A stretch of DNA of 64,000 nt from Candidatus Caldarchaeales archaeon (GCA_039630055.1 JBCNVN010000001.1:1-64000); one strand, 5' to 3'; counted from the stretch's first letter, positions 39,431-55,737 are shown. Program-made: numbers and translations. Notes: a model not told the origin generated them from the sequence alone.

Positions 39431-40108
39431 ATGGATCTAAGCTTTAGGTCTCTCTTCTATAGAAGAGAGAAGAAGATCATGGACTTTATTGAAGAATATA
39501 TTGAGAAGGTTGTAGACACGGTTAGATATCTTAGAGTGGTCAGTGAATTGGTTAAGAGTGAAAAGATGGGGGATGCAGCACGCCTCTATAACTTTATAGA
39601 TCTCTTAGAGAGTGAGGCAGATAATATGAGGAGGAAGATCTCTGAAGAACTATGTAAGGGGGCCTTCTTCGCCCATCTTAGAGAAGACTTACTAAACCTT
39701 GTAGAAGAGATAGATGATATTGCAGATTCTGCTAAATACTTTGTGAAACAGTTTGTAGAGACTACTCCAAGCTGGGATCTATTGTATTTCGTATTCAATA
39801 TCCCCGAGATGGATAGGTACATCCAATCATGTATCGAGGCCTCAGAGAAGCTACTCCATTCTTTCAGGGTTTTTAGAGAAGATGTGGAGCAGGCTAAACC
39901 AATACTACGAGAGATAGAAGATATTGAGGAAGAGGCTGATGAGCTCAAGACATCATTGATAAAGAATATTCTTAGAGAAGCTGATAGATTTAGGATAATA
40001 GATGTAATACTTGTCAAAGAAATGATTAGTATGATGGATAATATATGTGATTCTGCTGAAGATGCTTCAGACATACTCTTCCAGATAATCGCAGAGGGAT
40101 ATGGGTAA
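39431..40108 (+). CDS. DUF47/PhoU-like phosphate transport regulator
   Basis: Duplicated ESEAD/EEEAD and DDIAD/DNICD motifs; adjacent to a PiT gene. Confidence 0.85.
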   Translation: MDLSFRSLFYRREKKIMDFIEEYIEKVVDTVRYLRVVSELVKSEKMGDAARLYNFIDLLESEADNMRRKISEELCKGAFFAHLREDLLNLVEEIDDIADSAKYFVKQFVETTPSWDLLYFVFNIPEMDRYIQSCIEASEKLLHSFRVFREDVEQAKPILREIEDIEEEADELKTSLIKNILREADRFRIIDVILVKEMISMMDNICDSAEDASDILFQIIAEGYG

Positions 40109-40143
40109 ACACTTTAATAAATGTATACCTCTTTAAGAATTTC

Positions 40144-41049
40144 GTGGAAGAAGCCGAAGCCTTTACGATAGCTATCTTCATATCTTTCTTGTTCAGCTGG
40201 AATAATAGCTCGCTTTTCATAGGCGGTTTAACTAGTTCTGGTATTGTTAAGCTTAGGATTGCAGCTCTCTTTACAGCTCTATCCATGATTATAGGATTTT
40301 CAGCGGAGAGTCAGAAGATGGATCCTGAGAATATACTCCTTTACGACGGATATCACTCTCCGCTTATCACCATCTTGATTATGCTGGCTATCTCAAACCT
40401 CTTAAGCATCCCGATAAGCATATCAAGTATCTCTATAGCATCTTTAATAGGATCATCGATAGCATCGGGCTCCAGACTAAACATTGTTTTTCTCTCTATT
40501 ACAGTATTGGCCTGGCTATTAGCACCCTTATCATCAATGCTCTTAACATCTATCATATATAATATCTTGAGAAAGAGGTTCTCTTCTATCAAGATTGACT
40601 CCCTTCCTCTACTAAATAAGGTTATAATCTATTCTACTACCTTCTATGCTGCTTATGTAATCTCAGCGAACAACCTCGGATTCCTTATATCTATGCTCGA
40701 TAATGATTCCACGATTACTTATGTAACTACTTTTCTTGGGATAGTTTTAGGATCTTATTTCTTCTCAGAACGTATATCCTACATTATGGGCGAGAGGCTT
40801 GCGATACTAAGCCCAGTTAAGCTCTCATCAAGCCTTTTATCATCATCTATAATACTCTGGATACTAACTCAGTTCAGTATACCTTCAGCATTAACTCATA
40901 TAATTCTTGGAGGGTTTATCGGAGCAGCATCAGCCTCTCCTTCATCCATTATCAACATGAGACTCTTCAAGAATCTTACAAGATCGTGGATAATTACTAC
41001 TCTAATATCTATTCCATTATCCTACATCTTAAGAAGTATTATGAGATAG
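40144..41049 (+). CDS. Divergent PiT-family inorganic phosphate/anion transporter
   Basis: Polytopic; WNN and SANN variants of the PiT signature; IPISIS and IPSALTH. Confidence 0.75.
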   Translation: MEEAEAFTIAIFISFLFSWNNSSLFIGGLTSSGIVKLRIAALFTALSMIIGFSAESQKMDPENILLYDGYHSPLITILIMLAISNLLSIPISISSISIASLIGSSIASGSRLNIVFLSITVLAWLLAPLSSMLLTSIIYNILRKRFSSIKIDSLPLLNKVIIYSTTFYAAYVISANNLGFLISMLDNDSTITYVTTFLGIVLGSYFFSERISYIMGERLAILSPVKLSSSLLSSSIILWILTQFSIPSALTHIILGGFIGAASASPSSIINMRLFKNLTRSWIITTLISIPLSYILRSIMR

Positions 41050-41160
41050 ATGTTACGATCTTGAGACTCTACTAATCTTTTAAAACTATGGGGAGCCACT
41101 AGTATCTCTGATATAACGAAGATCTTAAAGATTAGATTAGCGAGGTTAGGAGTGGATTAA

Positions 41161-42246
41161 ATGAGTAGAGACAAGGAGACAAAGATCTTCGAGGTTGATA
41201 CATTAAATATTAACATGGATTATATTAGTGAGGCTGCTGAAGTGATTAGGGATGGAGGCTTGGTTGTCTTCCCCACCGAGACTGTCTATGGGCTTGGAGC
41301 AGATGCGTTGAATCGAGAAGCTGTAAGAAAAGTATACGAGGTTAAGAAGAGACCATTAGATAATCCATTGATAGTACATATATCAAATATGGGTCAACTA
41401 GATAATGTCATATCTAGGATCCATGTAGGAGAAGAAGTCTACAAAATTATGGAGAGGTTCTGGCCTGGTCCTTTAACCCTTATACTTCCAAAATCAAGAG
41501 AATTACCTTATGAGGTGACGGCCGGCCATCAAGTAGTTGCGGTTAGAATGCCTGCCCATCCAGTAGCTTTGAACCTAATAGAATTGAGCAGGACCCCGAT
41601 AGTAGGTCCCAGCGCTAATCCAGCCGGTAGACCATCCCCTACTAGTGGAGAACACGTTAAGAAAGATATGATGGGAAAAGTGGATGTGATAATAGATGCG
41701 GGAGAGACACTATATGGTGTTGAGTCAACGATAATAGACTTGACAAGGGATCCTCCGATGCTTCTTAGACCTGGAGCGATCCCAGTAGAAGAGGTTGAGA
41801 AATATATTCAGAAGAGGGTGGATGTGCCGGATTTTGCTAGAGGACTGGTAAAAGTATCTGAGGCAATATCTCCTGGGATGAAGTATAGACATTATGCACC
41901 TATTACACCTTTAATTGTTATTGAGGCTGGAGATTATTCTAATCTGGAGACCTATTGTAGGAAGATTCAGGAGTATGTTAGAGATTTGAAGAGCTCTGGA
42001 AAGAAGATTGTAATATTGGCCTCGAGAGAGACTAGAGAACTCTATGAAAATATTGATGTACTGGTTTTAGGTTCTAGAAGTAATCTTTTTGAAGTTGCTA
42101 AGAACCTCTTCTCAACCCTGAGGATTATCGATGAGCTTAAAGTAGATTTGGCCGTATCTGAAGGATTTGAAGAGAGAGGGTTAGGATTGACTATAATGAA
42201 TAGGTTACGGAAAGCAAGCGGATACAATATCATAAAGATACCGTGA
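41161..42246 (+). CDS. sua5: Threonylcarbamoyl-AMP synthase (Sua5)
   Basis: FPTETVYGLG, KKRPLDNPLIVH, FWPGPLT, PSAN, SPGMKYRHYAP. Confidence 0.96.
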   Translation: MSRDKETKIFEVDTLNINMDYISEAAEVIRDGGLVVFPTETVYGLGADALNREAVRKVYEVKKRPLDNPLIVHISNMGQLDNVISRIHVGEEVYKIMERFWPGPLTLILPKSRELPYEVTAGHQVVAVRMPAHPVALNLIELSRTPIVGPSANPAGRPSPTSGEHVKKDMMGKVDVIIDAGETLYGVESTIIDLTRDPPMLLRPGAIPVEEVEKYIQKRVDVPDFARGLVKVSEAISPGMKYRHYAPITPLIVIEAGDYSNLETYCRKIQEYVRDLKSSGKKIVILASRETRELYENIDVLVLGSRSNLFEVAKNLFSTLRIIDELKVDLAVSEGFEERGLGLTIMNRLRKASGYNIIKIP

Positions 42247-42477
42247 CTTTCTGAATTATCCATCGTATAGAGTTTAGGGAGTTATCATGGATCATCTTCA
42301 TAAAGTTCTAAGAGGAGATCAGCATCACGTCGTTCTTTGAACACACATACTACATAAACGATTATCAATTATCATGTAGATATGTAAGAGTATGAAGATG
42401 TCAAAGGTTGGAGGAAGCATATATAAATGCTAGGAAATTGAATATAGGAAGATGAAGTTCTTCTACTCTTCTCATTG

Positions 42478-42588
42478 ATGTATGTTATCGCTGTCGCTCC
42501 CAGTAATCCTTTAGTGCCAGTATTCTCAATGATGCTCTTGATTGTAATATTACTGCTGCTCTACTCTATCTACACCATTAGAAGGTGA
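42478..42588 (+). CDS. Small hydrophobic peptide (36 aa) directly upstream of the LAGLIDADG gene
   Basis: MYVIAVAPSNPLVPVFSMMLLIVILLLLYSIYTIRR*; its stop sits in AGGTGA, a ribosome-binding site for the next gene. Confidence 0.45.
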   Translation: MYVIAVAPSNPLVPVFSMMLLIVILLLLYSIYTIRR

Positions 42589-42592
42589 TATA

Positions 42593-43696
42593 TTGAATAG
42601 TGAAAACAAATTGTTCTCGAGATCTTCTTTAGAAGATCAACTGAGAGTTTATAGATACGTCATGGAAAAAAAGACTGAGAGTGCTAAAAACCTCGCCCAA
42701 CAGATTCGAGAAAAATTCCATGTGAGTATACACCCTGACACCATAAAGCGTTGGAAAAAGAGGGGTTCTCGTTTTGACTTCTTGATCGATTACCTAGAAA
42801 CTCCAATATTAGAAATATCGTACTTCACCCTCAGAGACGAGGCAATCAAATTACATAACGTATTCGGCTACGTATTGATAAGCAAGATACTTCATATGAA
42901 GTATGGCATTAGAATCAGTCCCCCAACAATAAATGGGTGGTTGCGGGGTAAAAAGCCCAGAACAACTAATCTCTCACCATCTCCCGAACTCGCTGTAGTA
43001 GCTGCTGCCGTTGTAGGAGACGGTTGTATAACTACTAGTAAACATTTGCGTCCCAAACCTTATGTACAAAAAAAGATAGAATTGTCCATGAAAGACATTG
43101 AACCAGTATTGATGGTAAGAGACTGTCTACTTAAAATTTGCAAATATAATTATATAATTAGTGAAAAACAGGGAAGGTATTGGATTGCTTGTCATAGAAA
43201 GGATCTCGTAGATTATCTAAGTAATAGAGACAACATTCTCAATCTATTGCGATCTTTTCCTATAGAATTTATGAGAATGTTATTTGAGTGTGATGGTCAT
43301 GTTTCTGCTAGTATTTCCACAGTAAACGATAAAGGAAAAATTAAAAAAGTCTTTGATGTAAAAATATGTCTAACGAACTCGGACAAAGAACTTTTAGAGG
43401 AGGTTCAAAAACAACTAGAAAAGTTAGGGATTCGTTCAAAGATATATTTATCCACAAAAGCTGGAACCCCACTAATAATGCCCAACAACTCTAGGATTTA
43501 TATAAGGAAGAAAGATATATACAGATTGTCCATACAGGAGAAATTGTCAATAATGAAATTCTCTACAATAAACTTTATTACTAGAAGAAAAAGACAGAAA
43601 CTGGAAAATATAATCAACATTCTCCAGAAATGCTCAGAGACAGAGGCTGTAGATGAATGGATTAAACTTGTAGCTGAATATATGAAGGGCGAATAG
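42593..43696 (+). mobile_element. Free-standing LAGLIDADG (intein-type DOD) endonuclease with two N-terminal HTH-like repeats
   Basis: LAVVAAAVVGDG and FMRMLFECDG motifs, LTNSDKELLEEVQKQLEKLGI, tandem HPDTIKRW / SPPTINGW helices; no intein splicing residues; A-rich composition unlike the flanks. Confidence 0.85.
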
Positions 43697-43727
43697 CCCC
43701 CTCCCCTCTCTTTATTTTTATTCTTCT

Positions 43728-43784
43728 CTAGGCTAATATAAAATTTTCAAGTCTTGTAATTGGATCTATTACTACTTCTCTCAA
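43728..43784 (-). pseudogene. mvhA: Truncated [NiFe] hydrogenase large subunit, first 13 codons only
   Basis: TTG start a few nt after the mvhG stop, preceded by GAGGGGTGA; reads MREVVIDPITRLE then NFILA*; group 3 large subunits begin IDPxTRxEGH. Confidence 0.85.
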
Positions 43785-43789
43785 TTATC

Positions 43790-44770
43790 TCACCCCTCAA
43801 CCATCTTTATCTTTCCACGTAGCCGTGAGGCGGCTAACGTATATCTATAGAATGTACCCATGAAGTCTGAAAAGTTGTTTAGAGCCTTCTCAATTTCTTC
43901 TTCATTATAGTGGTCTAGGATGCTTGCAAAGTATGATGCTGCCTTACCACCATAGTCTATTACTTCGTCAAGTGGGCCGAAGCATCCTGTACAAGGCATG
44001 GCAGCCTTGACACATAGTGCTCCACATCCTCCACGAGTAACTGGGCCTAAACATGCTAATCCTTGGACTAGAAGACATTTCTCAGGGTCGACGACTATTT
44101 CATGGGGTCTCTTGACCTCCTTTATTAAAACCTTCTCAGGCTTTGTCTCATTTAGAGGACAGTCATAGCATAGGGATCTTTCAGATGCTCCTAGAACAGA
44201 ACCTTTAGCTGGAAGGTTTCCTGATAGAAGAGCCTCGATAGCCTTCCATGTAACTTCGGGGGTTGGAGGGCATCCTGGAATATAGTAATCCACATCTATT
44301 ACTAGGTCTAATGGTAAGAGTCTTGGAAAGAACTCGGGTAGCTTAAGATTTATTCCCTCCTCTAATCTTACATTTGTCATAGGTGTTCTCTTTTCAGAGT
44401 TGCTAATGGTTGGAGCCTCATGATATACATAATTAAATATGTCTTCTTTACTGTATAGGTTGGCTAGACCTGGAACGCCTCCCCAAGATGAACATGCACC
44501 ATAAGCTACAACTATCTTGGACTTTTTCCTTAATAGTTTTACAACTTCTTCATGTTCCTCTAATCTTATCCCACCATTTATGAAGCTGACAGTTATAGAT
44601 TTATCTGGAAGGTTCTCAACATCCTTAACCTTAAAGTCTAGTGCCACCGGCCAGAATACTATATCTACCAAGCTTACTAAGTCTAGGATCTTCTCTGCCA
44701 AGTCTACTACAGATTCTTCACATCCACCACAGCTAGCACACCAGTAGAGAGCAACCTTAGGCTTCTCCAA
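43790..44770 (-). CDS. mvhG: Group 3c [NiFe] hydrogenase small subunit
   Basis: CASCGGCE, GACS, IPGCPP, distal CYDC / CLGPVT / CGALC / CTGC. Confidence 0.92.
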   Translation of the reverse strand: MEKPKVALYWCASCGGCEESVVDLAEKILDLVSLVDIVFWPVALDFKVKDVENLPDKSITVSFINGGIRLEEHEEVVKLLRKKSKIVVAYGACSSWGGVPGLANLYSKEDIFNYVYHEAPTISNSEKRTPMTNVRLEEGINLKLPEFFPRLLPLDLVIDVDYYIPGCPPTPEVTWKAIEALLSGNLPAKGSVLGASERSLCYDCPLNETKPEKVLIKEVKRPHEIVVDPEKCLLVQGLACLGPVTRGGCGALCVKAAMPCTGCFGPLDEVIDYGGKAASYFASILDHYNEEEIEKALNNFSDFMGTFYRYTLAASRLRGKIKMVEG

Positions 44771-45188
44771 CTCTCACCTCACCTTCAACCCTCAAAGGTC
44801 CCAAAGCTTTTATCTCCCTATACATTTCTTGAGCTACTCTAACAAATTTCTCTGCTTCTGAAGCAGATATCCATTCAAGCCTAAACCTCTCCTTCTCTAT
44901 CCCAAAACTCTCAAGCATCTTCTTCAGCAAAGTCATTCTCCTCAATGCTTTATAATTTCCTTCTATATAATGGCAGTCTCCTGGATGGCATCCAGCAACT
45001 AGTACTCCATCAGCACCCCGACTGAAAGCCTCCAAGATAAACTGAGGGTCGACTCTACCTGAACACATAACTTTTATAACTAAAAAGTTTGGAGGATACT
45101 TCATCCTACTCGTTCCAGCTAGGTCAAGCGCAGCATATGAGCACCAGTTACATGCAAAAACGATTATCCTAGGTTCAAAATTCTCCAA
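44757..45188 (-). CDS. mvhD: [2Fe-2S] subunit MvhD
   Basis: CNWCSY, MCSGRV, GCHPGDCHY, WISASE. Confidence 0.95.
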   Translation of the reverse strand: MENFEPRIIVFACNWCSYAALDLAGTSRMKYPPNFLVIKVMCSGRVDPQFILEAFSRGADGVLVAGCHPGDCHYIEGNYKALRRMTLLKKMLESFGIEKERFRLEWISASEAEKFVRVAQEMYREIKALGPLRVEGEVRVGEA

Positions 45189-45194
45189 AACTGA

Positions 45195-47162
45195 TCACCT
45201 CGCTAAGGCTGCTAAGAGCTGAGCCTTAAGCTGGGTATCTTTAAAGCTGAATTGCTGCATAGCACCACTTGGGCATGCGGCTACACAAACTCCACATCCC
45301 TTACATAGAGAAGCATCAACCTTCGCCGACCTCACCCGGTCTATAACCTCTAAACTTATAGCGGTATATGGGCACACACCTATACATATAGAGCATCCGC
45401 TACAAATACTTTTATTGACTACTGCTATCGTAGGCTCTACTATAACTTCTTCCTTGGATAGGAGTGTTACAGCCTTAGAAGCAGCCGCACTACCTGAAGC
45501 AATACTTTCAATAATGTTTTTAGGTCCTGTAACTGCTCCAGCTAAGTAGACTCCATCTGTAGTTGCCTCAACAGGTCTAAGCTTTAGATGTGCTTCTTTA
45601 AGGAAGCCTTCTGGTCCACATCCAACTTTAAGGATTGTTCTGACCTTATCTATACCTTCTGGAGGCTTCATCCCTACAACTAATACTACCAAGTCTGCAG
45701 GTATAGTCACTTCTTCATTTATCGTTTCTTCAAAGAAGCTTACATATATCTCACCATCAGGTTTAACCGTCACCCTTGGAGATTCTTTAAATCTTGCGAA
45801 TCTTATAAAGTGCTCACCGGCTTTTAAGTATAATTGTTCATCTCCTCTACCATACGTTCTAATATCTTTATGGAGTATGTAGATATCCGTATCCGGATAT
45901 GCTTCTCTGATCATTAATGCATTCTTTATAGTTGAGGAGCAACACATCCTCGAGCAGTGTGAGTAAGCATTAGGGGTTGTGTTTAGTGAGCCTACACACA
46001 TTATGAAGACTATCTTCTTAGGCTTAAACCCATCTACTACCAGTTCTCCATTTGTGGGACCATCTCGGACGAGCAATCTCTCAAGCTGGAACAATGTTGT
46101 GATCCTATTGGATAGCTTATACCCATACTCACCTATAGGAGGTTCATAAGGGTCGTAGCCTGCTGCCACGACTACTGCTCCAACATCTAGGTCTATCTCT
46201 TCAAATCTTTCCTCTAAGTTTATTGCGGCTGTGGGACATACCTCTACGCATTTACCACATCTAGTACAGTTCTGCATATCTATAACGTATAGCTTTGGAT
46301 ACGCATCTTTAAACGGTAGGTATATTGCTTTTCTTCTAGATATTCCAAACTCGTATTCATTCGGAACTTCTACAGGGCATATCTTACTGCACTCATCACA
46401 TAGAATACATCTCTCATTAACATACCTAGGCTTCTTCGCTAGCTTTACCTTGAAGTTTCCAACGGATCCATCTACTCCTATCAACTCTGTATTTACGTAT
46501 ATGTTGATGTTCGGGTCTCCAGCAACCTTCTGGATAAGCTCTCTAGCTATATCAGAGCCTTTCAGTTCTGTATAAGGTAATCTTCCAAGCCTAGCCACTC
46601 TTCCACCAAGAATAGGTGCTCTCTCGACCAAGTGAACTTTGAAACCTTTCCCAGCTAGGTCTTGAGCAGCAGCTAATCCTGAAACACCTCCACCGATGAC
46701 TAGCACGCTTCTATCTACCTTAAACTTTATATCTTCTAAAGGTTCTAGCAGAGATGCTTTAGCTACAGCCATTCTAATAAGGATCTTAACTTTCTCCGTA
46801 GCCCTCTCTTTAGTATCTGAATGTGGCCATGAACATAGTTCCCTTATATTCGCCATCTCTAGAACGTATGGATTTAGCCCAGCTTCAGCTAAGGTCGACC
46901 TAAAAGTATGTTCATGCATTGTTGGAGAACATGCAGCTACGACAACCCTGTTTAAACCATGCTTCTTAACGCTTTCCTTGATCAATTCTTGTCCAGGAGC
47001 TGAGCACATGAATAGGTAATCTCTTACCTCTACAACATTTGGTAGATTCTTAACATAATCAACTACTTCTTTAATGTTTACTACGCCTGCAATATTTGCT
47101 CCGCAGTGGCATACGTATACTCCGATTCTAGGCTCTTCACCCATGCTATACACCTCCAGCAA
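45195..47162 (-). CDS. HdrA-like flavoprotein, QmoB-type (MvhD domain encoded separately)
   Basis: CHCG N-domain, GGGVSG, inserted and C-terminal ferredoxin domains, CSRMCC; lacks the FPTxDC cysteine. Confidence 0.88.
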   Translation of the reverse strand: MLEVYSMGEEPRIGVYVCHCGANIAGVVNIKEVVDYVKNLPNVVEVRDYLFMCSAPGQELIKESVKKHGLNRVVVAACSPTMHEHTFRSTLAEAGLNPYVLEMANIRELCSWPHSDTKERATEKVKILIRMAVAKASLLEPLEDIKFKVDRSVLVIGGGVSGLAAAQDLAGKGFKVHLVERAPILGGRVARLGRLPYTELKGSDIARELIQKVAGDPNINIYVNTELIGVDGSVGNFKVKLAKKPRYVNERCILCDECSKICPVEVPNEYEFGISRRKAIYLPFKDAYPKLYVIDMQNCTRCGKCVEVCPTAAINLEERFEEIDLDVGAVVVAAGYDPYEPPIGEYGYKLSNRITTLFQLERLLVRDGPTNGELVVDGFKPKKIVFIMCVGSLNTTPNAYSHCSRMCCSSTIKNALMIREAYPDTDIYILHKDIRTYGRGDEQLYLKAGEHFIRFARFKESPRVTVKPDGEIYVSFFEETINEEVTIPADLVVLVVGMKPPEGIDKVRTILKVGCGPEGFLKEAHLKLRPVEATTDGVYLAGAVTGPKNIIESIASGSAAASKAVTLLSKEEVIVEPTIAVVNKSICSGCSICIGVCPYTAISLEVIDRVRSAKVDASLCKGCGVCVAACPSGAMQQFSFKDTQLKAQLLAALAR

Positions 47163-48435
47163 TTATAGATGCTTTGATAGCTGCAGAGTCGGCTTGGACC
47201 ACTGAGTCGGGTATATCTTTAGCTCCAGCAGCTACTCCTACAACATATATCCCTTTTATATTTGTTGAGGTTGGGTCTAGGTAAGGATTCTCTAAACGTA
47301 TGTATCCATCTTCGCTCAATGTTATAGGTAGAGCGGTTGGATAGTTCGGCTTAACCCCTAAAGCTAATACAACCATTTCAGCTCTCATAGTCTTCTTAAT
47401 CCCAGTGAAAGTATCTTCATAAGTAATCATAAGGTCTTTAGTCTTAGGGTCTTCCTCGATCTTCGCAGGCTTACTCCTAACGAAGTTTATCTTAAATTCC
47501 TCTCTAGCTCTGTTGTAGAATTCTTGGTATCCTTTTCCGAACGCTCTCATATCCATGTAGAATATTGTGCACTCAACATCCGGCAAGTGTTCTTTCGCAA
47601 GTATTGCATGTTTAATGGAGGCAGTACAGCAGAAGGCTGAGCAGTTTGGATTTATCTTAACATCTCTGGAACATATGCATTGTATAAATGCAATACTCTT
47701 CGGATGCTTTTTATCCGACCTCCTCACGACCTCTCCACCTGTTGGACCTGTTGCAGACACCAGTCTTTCAAATTCTAAAGATGTGTAAACGTTTGCATAT
47801 TTTCCATAACCGTAGAGTGGCTGTAGCTTGGGATCCATGAGTTCATATCCAGTAGCAATAATAATGGATGCAACGTTAAGCTCTATCGTTTGAGGCTGTT
47901 GCTCAAAGTCTACTGCTCTCGTTGGGCAGACCCTCTCACATACTCTACAAATCCCTTTAGTAAAGTAGAAGCAATAGTCTCTATCTATTGTTGCTTTTAG
48001 AGGGACTGCTTGAGGGAAGAGGAAATATATCGCTCTTCTATTGCTCATCCCTAGATTAAACTCGTCTGGAACTTTAGATGGACACTTAGACATACAAACT
48101 CCGCATCCAATACATTTATCTTCGATAACGTATCTAGGCTTCTTCAGGATCCTTACATTAAAGTCTCCTACTCCTCCTTTAACATCTAATACTTCTGAAT
48201 ACGTTAAGAGCTTTATCATTGGATGTCTTGCAACGGAGACCATCTTAGGCGTAAGTATGCATGAAGAGCAGTCTAATGTTGGAAATGTTTTATCGAGTTG
48301 AGCCATTTTACCACCAATACTCGGAGCCTTCTCGACCAGATACACTGGGATTCCGTGATCACCGAGATCCAAAGCTGCTTGGATACCAGCGATCCCTCCA
48401 CCAATAACCAATACAGGCTTAGGCAAGCGCGCCAC
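47146..48435 (-). CDS. Short HdrA-like flavoprotein, QmoA-type
   Basis: 429 aa starting directly at the FAD fold (GGGIAG), FPTLDC, inserted ferredoxin, CSAFCC; no N- or C-terminal extra domains. Confidence 0.88.
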   Translation of the reverse strand: MARLPKPVLVIGGGIAGIQAALDLGDHGIPVYLVEKAPSIGGKMAQLDKTFPTLDCSSCILTPKMVSVARHPMIKLLTYSEVLDVKGGVGDFNVRILKKPRYVIEDKCIGCGVCMSKCPSKVPDEFNLGMSNRRAIYFLFPQAVPLKATIDRDYCFYFTKGICRVCERVCPTRAVDFEQQPQTIELNVASIIIATGYELMDPKLQPLYGYGKYANVYTSLEFERLVSATGPTGGEVVRRSDKKHPKSIAFIQCICSRDVKINPNCSAFCCTASIKHAILAKEHLPDVECTIFYMDMRAFGKGYQEFYNRAREEFKINFVRSKPAKIEEDPKTKDLMITYEDTFTGIKKTMRAEMVVLALGVKPNYPTALPITLSEDGYIRLENPYLDPTSTNIKGIYVVGVAAGAKDIPDSVVQADSAAIKASIIAGGV

Positions 48436-49549
48436 CTCCTGAAGCTAAGAATCTCTCTTTCAAATTCGAGAAATAGATTGCGAAGGGTCTGTAAGCTAAG
48501 TGGGACCACTTGGTGAAAGGCACTTCAAGTATCAAGAATGGTGCAACCACCATTAAGTGTATCGAGTAGGTTATGTACGTTGCCAGAGGTAGCTCGATGA
48601 GTCTAAAGATTCCGACGAGAATGCCTGTTACCGTTGTGATGAAGAGTAGGATTATAAACATCCAGTCTGTTGGATGAGAGTAGCTCCACATAGGTTGAGA
48701 TCTCTTAATCCTCCCATAGATAGCTACTGAGGAACCGTAGAGCAATGCTATTGTAGAGAATATGCCGAGGATACTTAGAGGATTGACTAGTAGGAACGGC
48801 TCATTCGTTTGAGTAAATCTAAGCAATGGGACGAATAGTATGAAAGCTGCAGCATATCCGTAGACTATGATCAAATGGTTTATCCAGTTGGATGCTCTAC
48901 ATAACCTAAACTTTATCTGTGTAAATAAGTGTACTGGAATAGTCTTAATGAAGTCTTTAATCATGAACCTTAAAGGTATCTTTATCCTTCTCTCATGATC
49001 ATCCCTCATAATATATCTATACATTCTGTAGAGATTTGTTAAAAGCAATGTTGCAAGTATGAATAAGACTGCTAATCCAGCTGTATCAACTATATGTATT
49101 GGTGCAAAAGTTTCAAGCTCGACACTATCTAATACTATTGGTCCATGTAAGAAATAGATTAATAAGCCCACTATCGCTGCTATAGCTGCCGTCGCTAATA
49201 TTTCTACTTTCTTTGAGTAGTATAGTAGTTTCGAGAGTCCAGTCCAGTCATACTTAGTTGTAAGATACCTTCTAAGAGCCATCATAAAGCCTCCCGGATC
49301 AGCATCTCTAGGGCAATATTCACTACACTCTCCACAGTAGTAGCATAGCCATGGTTCTGGGCTTGATAGAAGCCTGTCTTGGACACCCATCAATGCATAA
49401 CGGATTAGTTTTCTCGGATAATTTGCACGTCCTTCACCAGTGACAGGGCATATAGCAGTACACTGACCACAGTTAAAACATTTAGAGAGACCTTTTGCTC
49501 CCAGTCTAATTATTTCTCTTGTTGTTTGAGGCACAACTAGACTTATCAT
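48419..49549 (-). CDS. qmoC: QmoC-like protein (HdrC-type 2x[4Fe-4S] domain fused to membrane cytochrome b domain)
   Basis: CFNCGQCTAICP, WLCYYCGECSEYCPR, several TM helices with His (NHLII, IHLMVV, KWSHLAYRP). Confidence 0.85.
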   Translation of the reverse strand: MISLVVPQTTREIIRLGAKGLSKCFNCGQCTAICPVTGEGRANYPRKLIRYALMGVQDRLLSSPEPWLCYYCGECSEYCPRDADPGGFMMALRRYLTTKYDWTGLSKLLYYSKKVEILATAAIAAIVGLLIYFLHGPIVLDSVELETFAPIHIVDTAGLAVLFILATLLLTNLYRMYRYIMRDDHERRIKIPLRFMIKDFIKTIPVHLFTQIKFRLCRASNWINHLIIVYGYAAAFILFVPLLRFTQTNEPFLLVNPLSILGIFSTIALLYGSSVAIYGRIKRSQPMWSYSHPTDWMFIILLFITTVTGILVGIFRLIELPLATYITYSIHLMVVAPFLILEVPFTKWSHLAYRPFAIYFSNLKERFLASGGGALA

Positions 49550-49597: not shown

Positions 49598-49671
49598 AAA
49601 ATATACTATTACTACTATATATACCTCCTAATCGGTTAAGGAATATATTCTAAACTAATGAAGTATATACT
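49598..49671. promoter_or_regulatory. Cluster of ATAT-core palindromic boxes upstream of the qmoC-like operon
   Basis: AGTATATACT (49662), GAATATATTC (49641), TATATATACC (49616), AAAATATACT (49598). Confidence 0.6.
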
Positions 49672-50743
49672 AACAGATTCTTGGAACTATCTCACCTATT
49701 GGTGGTTCAAGGATCCTATATCCACCTACACTCGTCCTGACCACTACTAGACTCATATCCTCTCTAGGTCTCACATCGCCTATTATCTGTGCCTCGACAT
49801 ATCCTACAGAATGTATTTGTTCAAGTACCTCTTCAGCTATTTCTCCTTCTACACCTATGACAGCTACTCCTTCAGATGCTAGTGTAAGAGGGTCTAATCC
49901 AAGCATCCCACAATAATTCTTAACAGACTCTCTTATTGGAATCTTCTCTTCATCGATAACTATAGTGGTATTAGAGGCTGAAGCCCAGTTGTTTAGAGTC
50001 ATTGCTAACCCTCCCCTAGTGGGATCACTAGCGGCATGGATGTTTTCACGGTGTCTTCTAGTAATAGGGATCATCAAGTCTGTTAGAGGTTTAACATCAC
50101 TTACAAGCTGAGATTCTTCAAGCATAACCTTCTCTCTAGCAGCATATATCGCTACACCATGCTCAGCTATAGGTCCTGAAACTATTATCTTATCTCCAGG
50201 TCTTAGATTCTTATCGATTATTAATTGTTCTGCAATACCTATACCAGCCATTGTAATGATTATCTTATCCAGCTGCCCTCTAGGCATGACTTTAAAATCT
50301 CCACCTATCAACTTAACATCCATACTCTTAAGTACAGTGAACATCGAATCTAAGATCTTCTGTAAAACTTCTTCTTCAAACCCTTCCTCAACTATTATAG
50401 AATCTAGGACAGCTATCGGCATCCCTCCAAGCATTAGTAGATCGTTTATTGTTCCAGTGGCTGAGAGTTTTCCAATATCTCCCCCTGGAAAGAATATTGG
50501 GCTAACCGTATAGGCATCCGCTGTTATTATAAGATATCTTCCTCCACCCATAGGTATTGCTGCAGCATCATCTGGAAAATCTATCCCTATCCCGCCTTCT
50601 ACAAACTTCATCCAAGATGGCACCCTTCCGAAGATCAAATCTTCAAGTAGCCGGCTCATCTCTCTACCACCAGAGCCATGTGCAAGAGTTATCTTACCCA
50701 TCTCCACACACCTATCTCTCCAAACCTCTCCAATACTTAACAA
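49670..50743 (-). CDS. hypE: Hydrogenase maturation protein HypE (true start probably MGKITLAHG)
   Basis: LAHGSGG, FFPGGDIG, GGDFKV, DPTRGG, C-terminal PRIC. Confidence 0.96.
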   Translation of the reverse strand: MLSIGEVWRDRCVEMGKITLAHGSGGREMSRLLEDLIFGRVPSWMKFVEGGIGIDFPDDAAAIPMGGGRYLIITADAYTVSPIFFPGGDIGKLSATGTINDLLMLGGMPIAVLDSIIVEEGFEEEVLQKILDSMFTVLKSMDVKLIGGDFKVMPRGQLDKIIITMAGIGIAEQLIIDKNLRPGDKIIVSGPIAEHGVAIYAAREKVMLEESQLVSDVKPLTDLMIPITRRHRENIHAASDPTRGGLAMTLNNWASASNTTIVIDEEKIPIRESVKNYCGMLGLDPLTLASEGVAVIGVEGEIAEEVLEQIHSVGYVEAQIIGDVRPREDMSLVVVRTSVGGYRILEPPIGEIVPRIC

Positions 50744-51005
50744 TTTTATCCATCTCTTTTAATTCTTCTATGGAGAGTTCACCTTCTTCAACAAGCTTCT
50801 CAGAAATCTCCTTGATATATTTGAAGCTTTCAAGAAAGTCTTCTTCACTAAGCTTTGAGATAACTATTCCTGCATGGACGATTACGTAATCTCCGGGAGA
50901 TAACTCATCTACCGCTGAGAATACTTCTCTCGTAACCCCTCCAAAATCTACTTTAACATTCTTTTCAGATACTTCTACCACCTTCCCATATACTCCCCAA
51001 CACAT
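50712..51005 (-). CDS. hypC: Hydrogenase maturation chaperone HypC
   Basis: N-terminal MC, VDFGGV, GDYVIVHAG. Confidence 0.93.
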   Translation of the reverse strand: MCWGVYGKVVEVSEKNVKVDFGGVTREVFSAVDELSPGDYVIVHAGIVISKLSEEDFLESFKYIKEISEKLVEEGELSIEELKEMDKIVKYWRGLER

Positions 51006-52174
51006 TACCTAACCACCTTTAATCCACGGTATCTAGCCCATATAGAGCATGTTCCCTCTAAGCTCACCATGCATGGTCCATAAGGAGTATCTAGGGTACA
51101 CTTAGTCAAGAAGAGAGGACAGTCTACAGGTTTTATCCTTCCCAAGATTACCTCCCCACATCTACATCCTGCCGATAGGTCGTGGGTCCACTCACTCTCC
51201 GAAGGTTCTTTGAAACCGTAGAGGCTTAATCCATCTAGTTCAAGATACTCTTTTCTCAGCTTATATCCACTTGATGGGATGAACCCTATACCTCTCCAAG
51301 CTGCATCACATACGTCAAAGACTTGACCGATCATCTTTTTCGCAAAAGTATTACCCTCCCAACTTACAGCTCTAGTATACTCGATCACTACCTCCGACCT
51401 ACCCTCATCTATCTGTCTAAGTATCTCCGCTATCGATATGAGGACATCTATCGGCTCGAATCCTGAGACCACTGTCGGAATACCATGCTCTTCAGATAGC
51501 TTCTTCCAAGCTTCTCCCCCTATAATTGTTGATACATGTCCAGGAGCGATGATCCCATCTACTCCACCCACTTTCTTTATAGCATAATCGGCTGCAGGTG
51601 GAGTTAACCTACCTGCAACTATAAAACTGAACCCTTTAGGTATAGAGTTCTTTATGATCATTGAGGCGTAGACTGGATATGTAGTCTCAAAACCTATTGC
51701 TAGAAATACTGATTCTCTCCCATCGCTTCTAGCATCTTTAACAGCATCGAGAAGGCTGTAAACTATCGAGACGTCTCCACCAGCTGACCTAGCCTCCGCA
51801 AGACTCTTAACTCCTTCAGTAATCCTGACTGTGGGAAGCCTATAGGCATCACCGTATGTATAAACTCTTATCCCTTCGAGGGCGAGCTTGATCGCTGCCT
51901 CGATATAGAATGATGGAGTTATGCAGACTGGACAGCCTGGGCCTGCTACCAACTCTATACCTTCAGGTAGAATGCTCCTCAGTCCATAGTGAGTCGTGGC
52001 CCACTCATGGGTTCCACAGAAGTTCATTATCTTTACCCTATCAATCCCATTACGTTTAATATTATTCCATAATGTATCTATAATTTTGACTATCTTTGAG
52101 GATAATTCCCGATTACTTCTAAAGATTTTATCGGTAGCCGTTCTTAGGTCTGACCACTCCAACATTATCAACAT
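51005..52174 (-). CDS. hypD: Hydrogenase maturation protein HypD
   Basis: CGTHE, GPGCPVC, GFETT, PGHVS, GPCMVSLEGTC. Confidence 0.97.
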   Translation of the reverse strand: MLIMLEWSDLRTATDKIFRSNRELSSKIVKIIDTLWNNIKRNGIDRVKIMNFCGTHEWATTHYGLRSILPEGIELVAGPGCPVCITPSFYIEAAIKLALEGIRVYTYGDAYRLPTVRITEGVKSLAEARSAGGDVSIVYSLLDAVKDARSDGRESVFLAIGFETTYPVYASMIIKNSIPKGFSFIVAGRLTPPAADYAIKKVGGVDGIIAPGHVSTIIGGEAWKKLSEEHGIPTVVSGFEPIDVLISIAEILRQIDEGRSEVVIEYTRAVSWEGNTFAKKMIGQVFDVCDAAWRGIGFIPSSGYKLRKEYLELDGLSLYGFKEPSESEWTHDLSAGCRCGEVILGRIKPVDCPLFLTKCTLDTPYGPCMVSLEGTCSIWARYRGLKVVR

Positions 52175-52315: not shown

Positions 52316-54307
52316 CTATGCGATTGCCTCTACCTTTACTACACGTCTTGGAATTATAGATTCTATCTCACTAAGTATCTGTTTGTCTGTAAACCCTCTC
52401 TGCCTCAGCGTTCTCGCTCCAGATGGACATGATGCTACACAGGTTCCACACCCTTGGCATAATGCTTCTTGAATGAGTGTGGTCTTACTCTGAACATCAT
52501 ATACGGCTGCTCCATATGGGCAAACCGATACACACATCCTACAACCTGAACATGTATTCCTATTAACCTCAGCTATTATCGGCTCTACTTCTATCACACC
52601 CGAGCTTAGTAGCGCTAACGCTTCAGATGCGGCCGCAGCTCCCTGGGCCACAGAATCAGGTATATCTTTAGGCCCTTGACATGCTCCTGCTACGAATACT
52701 CCTGTTGTCACAGTTGAGACGGGGGCTAGCTTTGGATGCTTCTCTAGGAAGAACCCATCTTTATCGAGTGGTACTCTGAATAACTTGGCAAGCTCTCTCG
52801 CATCCTTTCTAGGCTCTATAGCTGTAGCGAGAACCACCATATCTGCCTCAATGTTTTGGACTCTACCGAGTAGAGTATCTTCAAATGTTACTGTCAGCTT
52901 TCCATCTCCATTATCTACAACTTCAGCAGCCTTACCTCTAATGAAGATCACACCTTCTTCTTGAACCTTCCTATAAAATTCTTCATACCCTTTCCCATGT
53001 GCTCTGATATCTATGTATAGATTGTATACGGTAGAGTTTGGTAGTCTTTCTTTAATTAAGTGGGCGAGCTTGATAGCGTACATACAGCAGATTCTTGAGC
53101 AATATATGTGATAATTCTCATCTCTAGATCCAACACAATGTAAGATTACTATCGTTGAAGGAGTTCTACCATCTCTCATAACAATCTTTCCACCTGTTGG
53201 ACCTGATGCACTTGTGAGTCTCTCAACTTCTAGACCTGTATAGACATTTGTGTACCGCCCATATCCATATCTTTTTATTATCGTTGGGTCAAAGAGATCA
53301 TATCCAGTAGCAAGAATAATTGCTCCAACCTCCAGAATTACTTCTTCAGGTTTCTGTTCAAAGTTTATCGCCTTAGTAGGACAGAATCTCTCACAGACTC
53401 TACATATTCCCTTAGTGAAATATAAACAATGCTTTCTATCGATAGTATATTTTCTCGGTACTGCCTGAGGGAATTTTATGTATATTGCTTTCCTAAAGTT
53501 TAATCCCATATTAAATTCATCTGGAACTTTGGATGGGCATTTAGTAGCGCAAACTCCGCATCCTACACACTTGCTCTCATCAACGTATCTAGGCTTCTTG
53601 ACAACCTTGACCTTATAGTTTCCAACATGTCCTGATACTTCTTTTACTTCAGAGTAGGTAAATAAAACGATGTTCGGGTTGGATGCTAAATCAACCATCT
53701 TCGGGGTCAAGATGCATGCTGCACAATCCAATGTTGGGAATGTCTTTTCTAACTGTGCCATCCTACCTCCTATCGATGGTTCTTTCTCCACTAAGTAGAC
53801 TTTCTTACCAGCTTTAGCTATCTTTAAGGCTGTCTCTATACCTGTTATTCCCCCTCCGACGATTAATACAGATTGTTTTACTGGGAGATAGATCTTATTG
53901 AGCGGTTCATGGAATTTAACCCTGTTTACTGCTGCAGAGACTAGAAGCTTAGCTTTTTCTGTAGCTTTATCTACATTGTCTGTAACCCAAGATACTTGCT
54001 CACGGATATTCACCATCTGGAACATGTAAGGATTTAAGCCACCCTCTTCACAGACTCTCTGAAACGTCGCTCCATGCATAGTGGGAGAACAAGAAGCTAC
54101 GACAACATTCGTAAGATTGTAATCCTTGATGTCTTTCTTTATTAGCTCCTGGCCTGGATCAGAACACATATATGGATAGTTTCGTGCTATGACTACTCCA
54201 TCCAGATCTTTAACATACTCTCTTAGTTTCTCAACATCTACCATTGAGGCTATATTAAGACCACAATGGCATATGTATACCCCAATCCTCCTAACCATTA
54301 ACATCAC
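52316..54307 (-). CDS. hdrA: Heterodisulfide reductase subunit A, full length
   Basis: CHCG, GGGITG, FPTLDC, CVGSRD, CSRICCMYAIK, both ferredoxin domains. Confidence 0.95.
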   Translation of the reverse strand: MMLMVRRIGVYICHCGLNIASMVDVEKLREYVKDLDGVVIARNYPYMCSDPGQELIKKDIKDYNLTNVVVASCSPTMHGATFQRVCEEGGLNPYMFQMVNIREQVSWVTDNVDKATEKAKLLVSAAVNRVKFHEPLNKIYLPVKQSVLIVGGGITGIETALKIAKAGKKVYLVEKEPSIGGRMAQLEKTFPTLDCAACILTPKMVDLASNPNIVLFTYSEVKEVSGHVGNYKVKVVKKPRYVDESKCVGCGVCATKCPSKVPDEFNMGLNFRKAIYIKFPQAVPRKYTIDRKHCLYFTKGICRVCERFCPTKAINFEQKPEEVILEVGAIILATGYDLFDPTIIKRYGYGRYTNVYTGLEVERLTSASGPTGGKIVMRDGRTPSTIVILHCVGSRDENYHIYCSRICCMYAIKLAHLIKERLPNSTVYNLYIDIRAHGKGYEEFYRKVQEEGVIFIRGKAAEVVDNGDGKLTVTFEDTLLGRVQNIEADMVVLATAIEPRKDARELAKLFRVPLDKDGFFLEKHPKLAPVSTVTTGVFVAGACQGPKDIPDSVAQGAAAASEALALLSSGVIEVEPIIAEVNRNTCSGCRMCVSVCPYGAAVYDVQSKTTLIQEALCQGCGTCVASCPSGARTLRQRGFTDKQILSEIESIIPRRVVKVEAIA

Positions 54308-55217
54308 CTTTTATAGTAGTGGTTAAAACTATCTTCTTGCCGAGATTCTCTAACATATCCTTGCTGACTCCGAGCTCATGGAACGGAAGATTAAAAGACA
54401 ATCCAATTAGTTGAGTGAAATAGACTATCTGAATATTAGAGATATCTTTAACTTCTCTCTTCATCTTGATCTTAGCTATCTCTAAGTTTAAATGACATAG
54501 TGGGCATGCTGTAACGATACATTCTGTACCGAGCCGGATATATGATTCAAATATTTTCTTGATCATTGGTAATACTTTCTCTTCATTTGTCATCATCAGC
54601 ATTCCTCCACAGCACTTTGTTTTTAAAGGAGAATCGATAGGTTTACCACCTATCCATGAGATCATCCGTTCTATAGAGTTGGGAAATTCTGGGTCATCGA
54701 AGTATCCGTATGGTCTAGTTATCTGACATCCATAATACGGTGCGACTTTCAATCCATCCAACCCTTTAACAATACTCATCTTAAAGAGTTCTTCTCCTAC
54801 ATCATTTACTAGAAAATCTATTATGTGACGTACTTTAAGCTTTGATGATTCTGAATTGTTGAAGACATTATACTTTTTCTTAATCTCATTTAAGAGTTCC
54901 ATGTTTTCTGATATTTCGGTTAAAGTTCTTTTTAGTGATAGAAAGCATGCTGGACAGAGAACAAGGATTTCGGGGACACCCATCTCTAATGCTTTTGCCA
55001 GATTTCTAGCTCCTAGAAAGTATGCTCTCTTCTCATTTAATATTCTATAAAGATTTGATCCACAACAGTTCCAATCTTTTATCTCTGATACCTGTACACC
55101 TATCTTCTTGAGTAATGCGAGGGTAGACTTCCCATAATATCTTGCTATTCCATTTTTAGAACATGAGCAGCCCGGATAATAACTGACGTTTTTAGTTAGC
55201 TTACTATTCATAACCAC
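54291..55217 (-). CDS. hdrB: Heterodisulfide reductase subunit B
   Basis: Two CCG domains: YPGC/WNCCG/CPAC and YYGC/KCCGG/CPLC. Confidence 0.93.
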   Translation of the reverse strand: MVMNSKLTKNVSYYPGCSCSKNGIARYYGKSTLALLKKIGVQVSEIKDWNCCGSNLYRILNEKRAYFLGARNLAKALEMGVPEILVLCPACFLSLKRTLTEISENMELLNEIKKKYNVFNNSESSKLKVRHIIDFLVNDVGEELFKMSIVKGLDGLKVAPYYGCQITRPYGYFDDPEFPNSIERMISWIGGKPIDSPLKTKCCGGMLMMTNEEKVLPMIKKIFESYIRLGTECIVTACPLCHLNLEIAKIKMKREVKDISNIQIVYFTQLIGLSFNLPFHELGVSKDMLENLGKKIVLTTTIKGDVNG

Positions 55218-55224
55218 ACCTCAG

Positions 55225-55737
55225 CTATGCTCTAATCTCTTCAAGATTTTCTAATTTTTCAGGAGATAGAGAGAGGACCCCTTCACGTAGTAATCTGGCT
55301 GATAGAGGTAACATCTTTAAAAGCTTCAGAGGGTTTGTTCTTAGTGAGAAAGTTATCATAAGCCTAGTCTCAGATATCCTACCATACTTATCCACCAAGT
55401 CTACGTATGTCTTCATAAGCTTCGGATAGGTCAATCCATCAGAATATCCATTCTCCAATGCATATCTTTTCAGTGACGTCATAAACTCTCCAATATTTAT
55501 CTTGGCTGGACAGCGTACAGCGCAGAGATAGCATGTTGAACATAACCATAACGTATTGCTTTTTAAAGCTTCTTCGACCAACCCCTCTCTAATCAATACG
55601 ATCAATTGTCTAGGAGTATAATTCATATATTGGTTAAGTGGGCATGAGGCAGAACAGGTCCCACATTGTATACATTTCTCAATTACTGTCCGAATATACT
55701 TACTATCTTTTATAAGATGAATAGTTTGAGAGTTCAA
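55225..55737 (-). CDS. hdrC: Heterodisulfide reductase subunit C
   Basis: CIQCGTCSASCP and WLCSTCYLCAVRCP. Confidence 0.93.
   Translation of the reverse strand: MNSQTIHLIKDSKYIRTVIEKCIQCGTCSASCPLNQYMNYTPRQLIVLIREGLVEEALKSNTLWLCSTCYLCAVRCPAKINIGEFMTSLKRYALENGYSDGLTYPKLMKTYVDLVDKYGRISETRLMITFSLRTNPLKLLKMLPLSARLLREGVLSLSPEKLENLEEIRA

Follow-up and report, generated by a model that had tools for sequence, protein, structure and literature searches.

An Mvh-Qmo-Hdr gene cluster in a Caldarchaeales archaeon, encoding a candidate membrane-attached complex for H2 oxidation

The window analyzed here, the first 64 kb (64,000 nucleotides (nt)) of the 228,745-bp contig C1 (JBCNVN010000001.1) of a Candidatus (Ca.) Caldarchaeales archaeon (GCA_039630055.1), contains a gene cluster in which a QmoC-like membrane anchor and two HdrA-type flavoproteins are joined to an Mvh-type [NiFe] hydrogenase. 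The genome (hereinafter G000) consists of 80 contigs and is 91.9% complete. Positions 43790-49549 are filled exactly by five close-packed open reading frames (ORFs) on the minus strand, with adjacent ORFs either overlapping by 14-17 nt or separated by a gap of 6 nt, in the 5' to 3' order qmoC-like, short hdrA, long hdrA, mvhD, mvhG, and to this extent, the tightly coupled operon of the original prediction is borne out. The closest homologues of the QmoC-like protein, 75-81% identical, come from metagenome-assembled genomes (MAGs) labelled Nitrososphaerota or Thaumarchaeota and from Ca. Geocrenenecus arthurdayi (family Wolframiiraptoraceae); because the latter is among the nearest homologues, G000 probably belongs in or near the genus Ca. 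Geocrenenecus.

The first gene of the operon (48419..49549, minus strand) encodes a membrane anchor of 376 amino acids (aa) for which the best NCBIfam model, here and below judged by its own equivalog cut-off, is qmoC (204.8 bits, cut-off 300; the alignment spans model positions 6-360 of 360). Its N-terminal HdrC-like domain carries the CxxCxxCxxxC motif twice (residues 24 and 69) and is followed by about six hydrophobic helices with conserved histidines (motif scan and hydropathy), of which His135, His225, His292, His331 and His350 are invariant in an alignment of 16 sequences. The protein, therefore, combines an HdrC-like two-cluster head with a putative haem-b membrane domain, as canonical QmoC does. 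The short HdrA (47146..48435, minus strand; 429 aa) consists of the flavin-binding core with the inserted ferredoxin domain only, corresponding to positions 140-559 of the 777-position HdrA2 model and to residues 145-563 of the methanogen HdrA chain 5ODC_A (461.6 bits). The long HdrA (45195..47162, minus strand; 655 aa) is full-length, with the N-terminal domain, the core, the inserted ferredoxin domain and a C-terminal ferredoxin domain (residues 2-646 of 5ODC_A, 661.3 bits); it contains four CxxCxxCxxxC motifs and has neither a DCxxC motif nor a fused MvhD domain. The operon continues with mvhD (44757..45188, minus strand; 143 aa), which matches PF02662 (196.6 bits) and the VhuD model (136.5 bits, cut-off 215), and mvhG (43790..44770, minus strand; 326 aa), the [NiFe]-hydrogenase small subunit, which matches PF01058 (88.4 bits) and the VhuG model (224.2 bits, cut-off 450). 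Scanning with Pfam and NCBIfam revealed no ferredoxin gene in the operon, nor was there an HdrB-type gene with CCG domains; hdrB is found upstream, in a separate hdrCBA set.

The hydrogenase large subunit gene, mvhA, is represented in C1 only by a 5' fragment that starts 6 nt after mvhG, outside the five-gene stretch (43728..43784, minus strand), and comprises 18 codons (LREVVIDPITRLENFILA) followed by a stop. Codons 1-13 (43784-43746) are identical to those of an intact mvhA on another contig of the same genome, C21 (18,954 bp); five unrelated codons and the stop come next. C21 ends in 77 nt that are 100% identical to window positions 43746-43822, the mvhG/mvhA junction, and runs from this overlap into an mvhA of 487 aa with the same first 13 residues, and then into a maturation protease gene. 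The C21 MvhA carries both nickel-ligand motifs of a hydrogenase large subunit, RICGVC from residue 58 and DPCHAC from residue 451, and scores 411 bits against the VhuA model (cut-off 800). Such an exact overlap at a contig end looks like a branch of the assembly graph, and a stub at a junction inside a contig can be the product of such a branch. Public contigs from two hot-spring runs (X1 and X2) of one study, from which G000 itself may derive, lead in the same direction: those over mvhG (5544 nt in X1, 247 nt in X2) continue past position 43746 by 62 and 26 letters, respectively, and the letters shown beyond it (30 of the X1 contig, 26 of the X2 contig) are the reverse complement of the C21 continuation. 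The congeneric genomes G049 and G050 share this arrangement: downstream of mvhG come mvhA, the protease gene and homologues of five more C21 genes, in the order found on C21. Given the C21 overlap, the public contigs and the synteny in the congeners, we conclude that most of the population has an intact mvhA immediately after mvhG. The mvhA stub noted originally is thus not the prevailing form of the gene, and the C1 path through the broken mvhA is a minor allele, or a join via a mobile segment or assembly path, not a loss of the hydrogenase.

In C1, the rest of mvhA is replaced by a unique 1.2-kb segment that includes a plus-strand ORF of 367 aa with a LAGLIDADG_3 domain (42593..43696; PF14528, 55 bits). 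This segment is covered only by short public contigs, at a depth of 0.7-6 compared with 10-15 on both flanks, contig depth being a weak measure. Among the public contigs listed, beyond which there are 71 further pieces, none bridges 43580-43746, and we draw no conclusion from this gap. The LAGLIDADG_3 ORF is single-copy at the DNA level, with protein paralogues of 26-28% identity on C20 (810-1580) and C31 (1-681). On the far side of the segment lies a repeat-like stretch, an assembly-graph branch point (42470..42589), that is 92.5% identical to C77:1-120 and is present in weaker copies in C19 (1400-1538) and at one C8 end; in all, this stretch of about 120 nt recurs at or near several contig ends of G000. 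Together with these copies, window positions 42470-43745 look like part of a family of mobile segments, now diverged, at which the assembly breaks. A comparison with PHROGs yielded nothing informative for the LAGLIDADG_3 ORF; there is no tRNA gene at 40000-45000; the direct and inverted repeats around the segment are all short and chance-like; the 28-nt sequence of the broken junction had no match in the metagenome contigs searched; and of the 198 pattern matches to relatives of the ORF in the metagenome contigs, none was confirmed. We rejected the possibility that the ORF is an intein, given that it is encoded on the strand opposite to mvhA and that the break is followed by Gly. A simple deletion of the 19-kb C21 segment from C1 is unsupported as well, as the other end of C21 matches no contig, and is further disfavored by the location of the C21-start genes on the hypE side in G050.

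In a second species of the genus, G054 (locus L102, C74, 780-820), mvhA is broken after the Glu codon of R-L-E, 0-1 nt from the C1 break. The sequence after the G054 break is unrelated to that in G000, the site falls within the codons of the conserved hydrogenase R-x-E-G-H motif, and no other MvhA was found in this 84% complete genome. Two breaks at one spot, one of them beside a LAGLIDADG gene, suggest a site-specific cut, with an assembly artefact as the alternative.

Phylogenetic analysis separates the window proteins from the canonical Qmo complex, the electron donor system linked to AprAB. In a QmoC tree of 81 rows, constructed with a quick method, five Mvh-linked QmoCs and one Nitrososphaeria sequence form a clade (Shimodaira-Hasegawa-like approximate likelihood-ratio test (SH-aLRT) 100) apart from the Apr-linked QmoCs. 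For HdrA, a tree was built by a careful method. Its 69 rows come from 34 loci, hand-picked among the 80 of the survey described below so as to span four gene-order patterns, plus three window proteins. A 100/100 branch sets the 28 canonical QmoA and QmoB rows apart from the window proteins, both HdrAs of the operon included; likewise outside canonical Qmo, the Mvh-linked short subunits form one clade and the long subunits another (100/99 each). In a quick HdrA tree, the long subunits of the window type are sisters to those of hydrogenase-free mvhD-hdrA-hdrA-qmoC clusters (SH-aLRT 99), and the short subunits group with the HdrABC-type HdrA of the window, which is 54% identical to the short subunit of the window.

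The two HdrAs also differ in their motifs. The short subunit retains the methanogen DKTFPTLDCxxC signature (Cys194 and Cys197, counted from the alignment with 5ODC_A), which we take to lie near the flavin, together with the four-Cys cluster motif, and it alone of the pair has this methanogen-type combination. Across the 158 HdrA-like ORFs of the motif census, all 13 short subunits and none of the 13 long ones in clusters of this type have DCxxC; almost all of them retain the four-Cys cluster motif, the long window subunit included. Thus, judging from the sequences, the HdrA pair is asymmetric in the manner of QmoA and QmoB, but of separate descent, and both of its members are closer to the methanogen-type HdrA than to canonical Qmo. 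The labels QmoA-type and QmoB-type that these subunits were given initially are accordingly apt with respect to size only: no MvhD domain is fused to the long subunit, and neither subunit affiliates with Qmo.

We surveyed gene order around the best 80 of 590 confirmed qmoC-like stretches in a collection of species genomes. The order qmoC-hdrA-hdrA-mvhD-mvhG-mvhA is found at four of these 80 loci, from Archaeoglobaceae, Bathyarchaeia, Thermoprotei and Ca. Geocrenenecus, all with intact mvhA. Hydrogenase-free mvhD-hdrA-hdrA-qmoC accounts for 24 of the 80, aprBA-qmoABC for 15, and qmoAB(C) without apr in the flank for 37. Within the order, a qmoC-like gene is present in 10 of the 76 species genomes (G000 counted), and eight of the other nine loci were fetched. 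All eight display the cluster, seven with an intact mvhA of 486-498 aa; because one of the eight repeats a locus already counted (L011), the full six-gene order recurs in 10 distinct loci other than that of the window, and an eleventh, in G054, shows the same order as far as its broken mvhA. In G058 (L101, C22, 7476-8789) and G054 (L102, C74, 5527-6696), QmoC is only 41-43% identical to that of the window, yet the HdrA and Mvh proteins are about as close to those of the window as the ones of the nearest congeners; this discrepancy suggests that the membrane subunit was exchanged. In another genus of the order, the cluster opens with two tandem qmoC paralogues (L099, G019:C6, 10057-12350; L100, G021:C2, 7405-9686), which are 50-53% and 34-37% identical to the qmoC product of the window.

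As the original prediction stated, none of the 56 window ORFs scanned with Pfam encodes Apr, Sat or Dsr, but the genome as a whole presents a different picture for Sat and Dsr. AprA is absent from G000 (best score 23.8 bits against a cut-off of 641.75), and tblastn queries with AprA and AprB from a Desulfofundulus locus recovered nothing at E <= 0.001; G000 yielded no match to the AprB domain, but neither did any control genome. The methanogenesis marker mcrA is absent from G000 too. In contrast, contig C23 carries dsrA (514 bits) and dsrB (479 bits), both over the cut-off, with dsrC 7 kb away, as well as a sirohaem-type methyltransferase, a weak NarI-like DsrM candidate (38.9 bits) and a DsrK-like protein (309 bits, cut-off 400), and sat is on C15, beside a phosphodiesterase and with no adjoining sulfur gene. 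The dsrA match (C23:20490-21650) was flagged for one internal TGA, while the ORF listing gives an open dsrA of 392 aa, so that the TGA is probably at the edge of the match. Within the order, dsrA is confined to the genus of the window, where it occurs in 8/8 genomes. G000 also encodes a second, group-4-like [NiFe] large subunit, on C67. Farther along C1, outside the window (about 190000-194550; L087, 3000-9334), there is a second HdrA-type system. It consists of a protein of 1135 aa in which two HdrA-like cores are joined to a C-terminal MvhD domain, an HdrC/HdrB-like fusion of 381 aa (4Fe-4S and two CCG domains) and two ETF subunits, and is located directly after a three-subunit 2-oxoacid:ferredoxin oxidoreductase.

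Within the window, the cluster is surrounded by hydrogenase maturation and Hdr genes. Directly upstream of qmoC are the [NiFe] maturation genes hypE (49670-50743, minus strand; AIRS/AIRS_C) and hypD (51005-52174, minus strand; HypD, 407.4 bits), followed by a soluble-type HdrABC set identified by Pfam and NCBIfam scanning, which was missed in the initial gene list: hdrA (52316-54307, minus strand; 663 aa), hdrB (54291-55217, minus strand) and hdrC (55225-55737, minus strand). This hdrCBA set is on the same strand as the operon, 2.8 kb upstream of qmoC with hypD and hypE in between, and could provide a second possible partner for the same Mvh hydrogenase. Farther upstream are a DUF2096_N gene (55742-56095, minus strand; Pfam scan) and hypF (57379-59685, minus strand; 775.5 bits, over the cut-off), and then hypA (59822-60271) and a ParA/Mrp-type NTPase (60253-61005), both on the plus strand. 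The congener G053 (L108, C18, 9731-19793) has the gene order DUF2096-hdrC-hdrB-hdrA-hypD-(97-aa ORF)-hypE-mvhD-mvhG-mvhA-protease, that is, the window locus minus qmoC and the two extra hdrA genes; the presence of this three-gene module between hypE and mvhD in G000 and its absence in G053 is the sole difference named between the two congeners.

The original prediction did not recognize the arrangement as described, but the same gene content and the bifurcation hypothesis are already in print. In Ca. Methanoglobus nevadensis, Buessecker et al. (bioRxiv 10.1101/2022.12.01.518715) report that genes for [NiFe] hydrogenase subunits cluster with those for two HdrA homologues and for a QmoC fused to HdrC; they point out that AprAB is absent and speculate that electrons flow between H2, ferredoxin and menaquinone. 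In Ca. M. hypatiae, the same cluster is reported to be expressed at 995-2431 reads per kilobase per million (RPKM), bifurcation from H2 to menaquinone and ferredoxin is hypothesized, and the genome is described as having no HdrB at all (Lynes et al., 10.1101/2023.09.08.556235; PMC10945360). The G000 cluster has the same content (MvhA, with the gene here taken from C21, MvhG, MvhD, two HdrAs and QmoC with the HdrC-like head), the same lack of AprAB and the same proposed role. Furthermore, the Archaeoglobaceae locus L007 (a family-level label) has the identical gene order and an intact mvhA, its QmoC is 68% identical to that of the window, and its proteins group with the window proteins in both trees. 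Unlike Ca. Methanoglobus, as far as the published accounts go, G000 is non-methanogenic, lacks mcrA, has hdrCBA adjoining the cluster and possesses dsrAB, dsrC and dsrMK-like genes, those dsr genes being reported missing in Ca. M. nevadensis. Hua et al. (2018; PMC6053391) described an hdr copy clustered with mvh in the dsrAB-bearing Aigarchaeota JZ bin_15 and proposed that electrons are delivered to ferredoxin and DsrC; the main text of that article does not mention 'Qmo'. The DiSCo paper (PMC8477390) lists QmoB and QmoC in Dsr-bearing Nitrososphaeria MAGs. A full-text literature search returned nothing further on 'Mvh-Qmo-Hdr' or on Aigarchaeota Qmo with Mvh.

Canonical QmoABC likewise consists of a short and a long HdrA-like flavoprotein, asymmetric, and a QmoC with an HdrC-like two-cluster domain and a haem-b membrane domain, but it is tied to aprBA, which is missing in G000, and the gene order here is reversed relative to aprBA-qmoABC, with qmoC first. 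QmoB, with its fused C-terminal MvhD-like domain (PMC3333476), has 736-746 aa, whereas the long subunit of the window (655 aa) ends with the ferredoxin domain and MvhD is a separate ORF of 143 aa; QmoA has YFPKLCPPxCG where the short subunit of the window has DKTFPTLDCxxC. With the methanogen HdrABC-MvhAGD complex (PDB 5ODC and relatives), the cluster shares MvhA, MvhG and MvhD; the long HdrA aligns with its counterpart end to end and the short one with the core. In contrast to that complex, the operon encodes no HdrB and, consequently, lacks the site of disulfide reduction; a membrane haem-b domain is attached to the HdrC-like one, and two unlike subunits take the place of the HdrA dimer. The hydrogenase-free clusters (L010, L013, L015, L017, L021, L035, L065-L085), for which we found no name in the literature examined, encode the same short/long pair, with the motif conserved in 21/21 short subunits, in the order mvhD-hdrA(short)-hdrA(long)-(small ORF)-qmoC and without mvhG or mvhA in the flanks; among bacteria, these clusters are widespread (Anaerolineales, Planctomycetota, Desulfobacterales and others), and some archaea have them too. 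In L010, the hydrogenase-free cluster is preceded by a DUF2096_N gene, as hdrCBA is in the window.

The AlphaFold2 model of QmoC (mean predicted local distance difference test (pLDDT) score 78, predicted template modelling score 0.80) has a head that resembles HdrC (Z 8.9, root-mean-square deviation (rmsd) 2.6, 92 aligned residues), in accord with the 56-bit sequence match to HdrC. Neither a Foldseek search of the PDB with this model (E <= 0.001) nor a sequence search of the PDB detected a match at that threshold or a Qmo chain, respectively. A complex model of the short HdrA and QmoC residues 1-130 scored 0.70 compared with 0.01 for the best of three controls; the 0.70 mark is reached by 116/157 solved complexes and 2/215 mismatched pairs, counts that apply only approximately to a model made, like this one, from our own alignments. 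At least 98% of the contacts are shared between runs, partner pLDDT is at least 81, and the modelled contacts place HdrA residues 253 and 257-260, in the region of the four-Cys motif, against QmoC residues 25-34, which include the first cluster motif. Because HdrA-HdrC complexes have already been solved (5ODC), the model indicates likeness to HdrA-HdrC, not binding.

Taken together, these observations make it probable, at somewhat better than even confidence, that the locus is a Caldarchaeales copy of the Ca. Methanoglobus-type Mvh-Qmo-Hdr cluster and encodes one membrane-attached bifurcating complex that transfers electrons from H2 to quinone and ferredoxin. The H2-driven complex that was proposed from the start fits everything found, in particular, the absence of aprAB, the position of the HdrAs outside Qmo and the recurrence of the gene order, but we infer that the products assemble into one complex, that it bifurcates electrons, which quinone it reduces and that it is connected to Dsr. 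Under this scenario, the group-3c-like [NiFe] hydrogenase MvhAG would oxidize H2 and MvhD would pass the electrons on to the asymmetric HdrA pair, to which the long subunit would contribute the N- and C-terminal iron-sulfur domains and the short subunit the flavin-proximal Cys motif; in methanogen HdrA, the N- and C-terminal iron-sulfur domains dock MvhD. The downhill electron would leave the flavin via the four-Cys cluster of the short subunit, cross both clusters in the HdrC-like head of QmoC and reach the haems b and then a membrane quinone; the uphill electron would pass from the flavin via an inserted ferredoxin domain to ferredoxin. The quinol could feed sulfite reduction by DsrMK, DsrC and DsrAB in this organism. 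A bolder version, which we consider possible but doubtful, is that qmoC and the short and long hdrA form a portable membrane adaptor by which a soluble Mvh(/HdrABC) hydrogenase system is connected to the quinone pool, that in this dsrAB-bearing genus H2 thereby drives a minimal DsrMK-DsrC-DsrAB sulfite respiration with ferredoxin co-reduction, and, separately, that mvhA may be repeatedly cut, site-specifically, at the R-x-E-G-H codons.

Several observations weigh against this interpretation. QmoC, MvhG, MvhD and MvhA each score under the respective NCBIfam equivalog cut-off, and bifurcation is argued by analogy with HdrABC-MvhADG, no member of the type having biochemistry. The best fold match of the QmoC membrane part, EtfD of Mycobacterium smegmatis (PDB 9OJN; VIA Z 10.3, rmsd 4.9, 223 aligned residues, Foldseek E 0.022), is, like QmoC, a membrane iron-sulfur protein, but the sequence similarity is weak (E 0.0048) and the partners differ; moreover, Z scores of 9-10, such as those for EtfD (10.3), the di-haem cytochrome b561 (10.2) and NarI (9.2), are within the chance range of helical bundles, so that these matches are consistent with the proposed fold, not decisive. 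The quinone pool of G000 is a predicted acceptor. The original statement that menA is present proved too strong: the UbiA-family prenyltransferase gene at 23328-24254 (plus strand) is MenA-like but under every curated cut-off (best models 215.7 bits, cut-off 239, and 153.8 bits, cut-off 277), and the proposition that it tracks the cluster was rejected, given that relatives occur in 54/76 genomes of the order and were not found in the cluster-bearing congeners G048 and G049. The search for the Men route in G000 covered, among the Men genes, only MenA and MenB, and the 'MenB' match is an enoyl-CoA hydratase (146.6 bits against 342.7); MqnA/D were not found in G000, and the best MqnC score was 22.5 bits against a cut-off of 428. 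Nor is the cluster tied to Dsr: it occurs without dsrA in four genomes of the order, and dsrA occurs without qmoC in two congeners, one of them only 59% complete. Finally, judging by the gene content of G053, where only hdrCBA-hypDE-mvhDGA is present, MvhADG can do without the membrane module.

The G053 locus supports the modular view of the cluster and, at the same time, keeps alive the view that the hydrogenase mainly serves the upstream soluble HdrABC, with ferredoxin and DsrC or another disulfide as acceptors, and that qmoC-hdrA-hdrA is an add-on that shares MvhADG or has another donor. The same-strand hdrC-hdrB-hdrA 2.8 kb upstream of qmoC, and the hdr-mvh cluster of JZ bin_15 with its proposed electron flow to ferredoxin and DsrC (PMC6053391), would agree with such a division of labor. 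We nevertheless consider it unlikely: it is qmoC-hdrA-hdrA that abuts mvhD, with overlaps or 6 nt in between, whereas hdrCBA is set apart by hypD and hypE; no hdrB or hdrC scored in the searched flanks of G049, L007, L008 and L009; and Ca. M. hypatiae is reported to lack any HdrB (10.1101/2023.09.08.556235). A simpler device, a non-bifurcating H2:quinone oxidoreductase in which ferredoxin is not involved, is suggested by the absence of the flavin-proximal Cys motif in the long subunit and of a ferredoxin gene in the operon. The redox potentials strongly favor the passage of electrons from H2 to menaquinone, for which no coupling is required. However, the inserted ferredoxin domain of methanogen HdrA leads to ferredoxin, and the short subunit retains the whole HdrA core with this two-cluster domain; two HdrA-type flavoproteins would make a costly wire, and we rate this solution slightly lower still than a hydrogenase dedicated to HdrABC.

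Operation in reverse, that is, production of H2 from quinol and reduced ferredoxin as a means of electron disposal in a fermenter, seems improbable. Relatives in the family are described as sugar fermenters that recycle ferredoxin via a membrane hydrogenase (PMC9246946). The group-4-like large subunit on C67 would fit this lifestyle, but the dsrAB, dsrC and dsrMK-like genes of G000 consume quinol or reducing power. Mvh-type hydrogenases are uptake enzymes, and the published proposals are for H2 uptake. Least credible of all, to the extent that we give it hardly any weight, is a decaying operon with a truly broken mvhA and a non-functional module. C1 does depart from mvhA after codon 13, and the break in G054, where no second MvhA was detected, is at the same place; these breaks have to be set against the intact C21 mvhA with its exact overlap, the public contigs, in which mvhG runs on into intact mvhA and the replacing segment appears only on short, shallow pieces, the synteny with the intact form in G049 and G050, and the open reading frames of all other operon genes.

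If this mechanism holds, the cluster would encode an enzyme whose flavin-based bifurcation uses a membrane quinone for the high-potential acceptor, and H2 oxidation would be linked directly to the respiratory chain and the ferredoxin pool. In the literature, the cluster has been discussed only for methanogenic Archaeoglobi; the survey extends it to four archaeal lineages of hot environments, with Caldarchaeales, Bathyarchaeia and Thermoprotei added to Archaeoglobaceae, and separates it from canonical Qmo. The motif asymmetry of the HdrA pair, the G053 locus without the three-gene membrane module and the break of mvhA at the same codon in a second species are new here as well. In one genus, the cluster coexists with deep-branching dsrAB, and the pair G000 and G053 offers a natural presence/absence comparison for what the membrane module adds.

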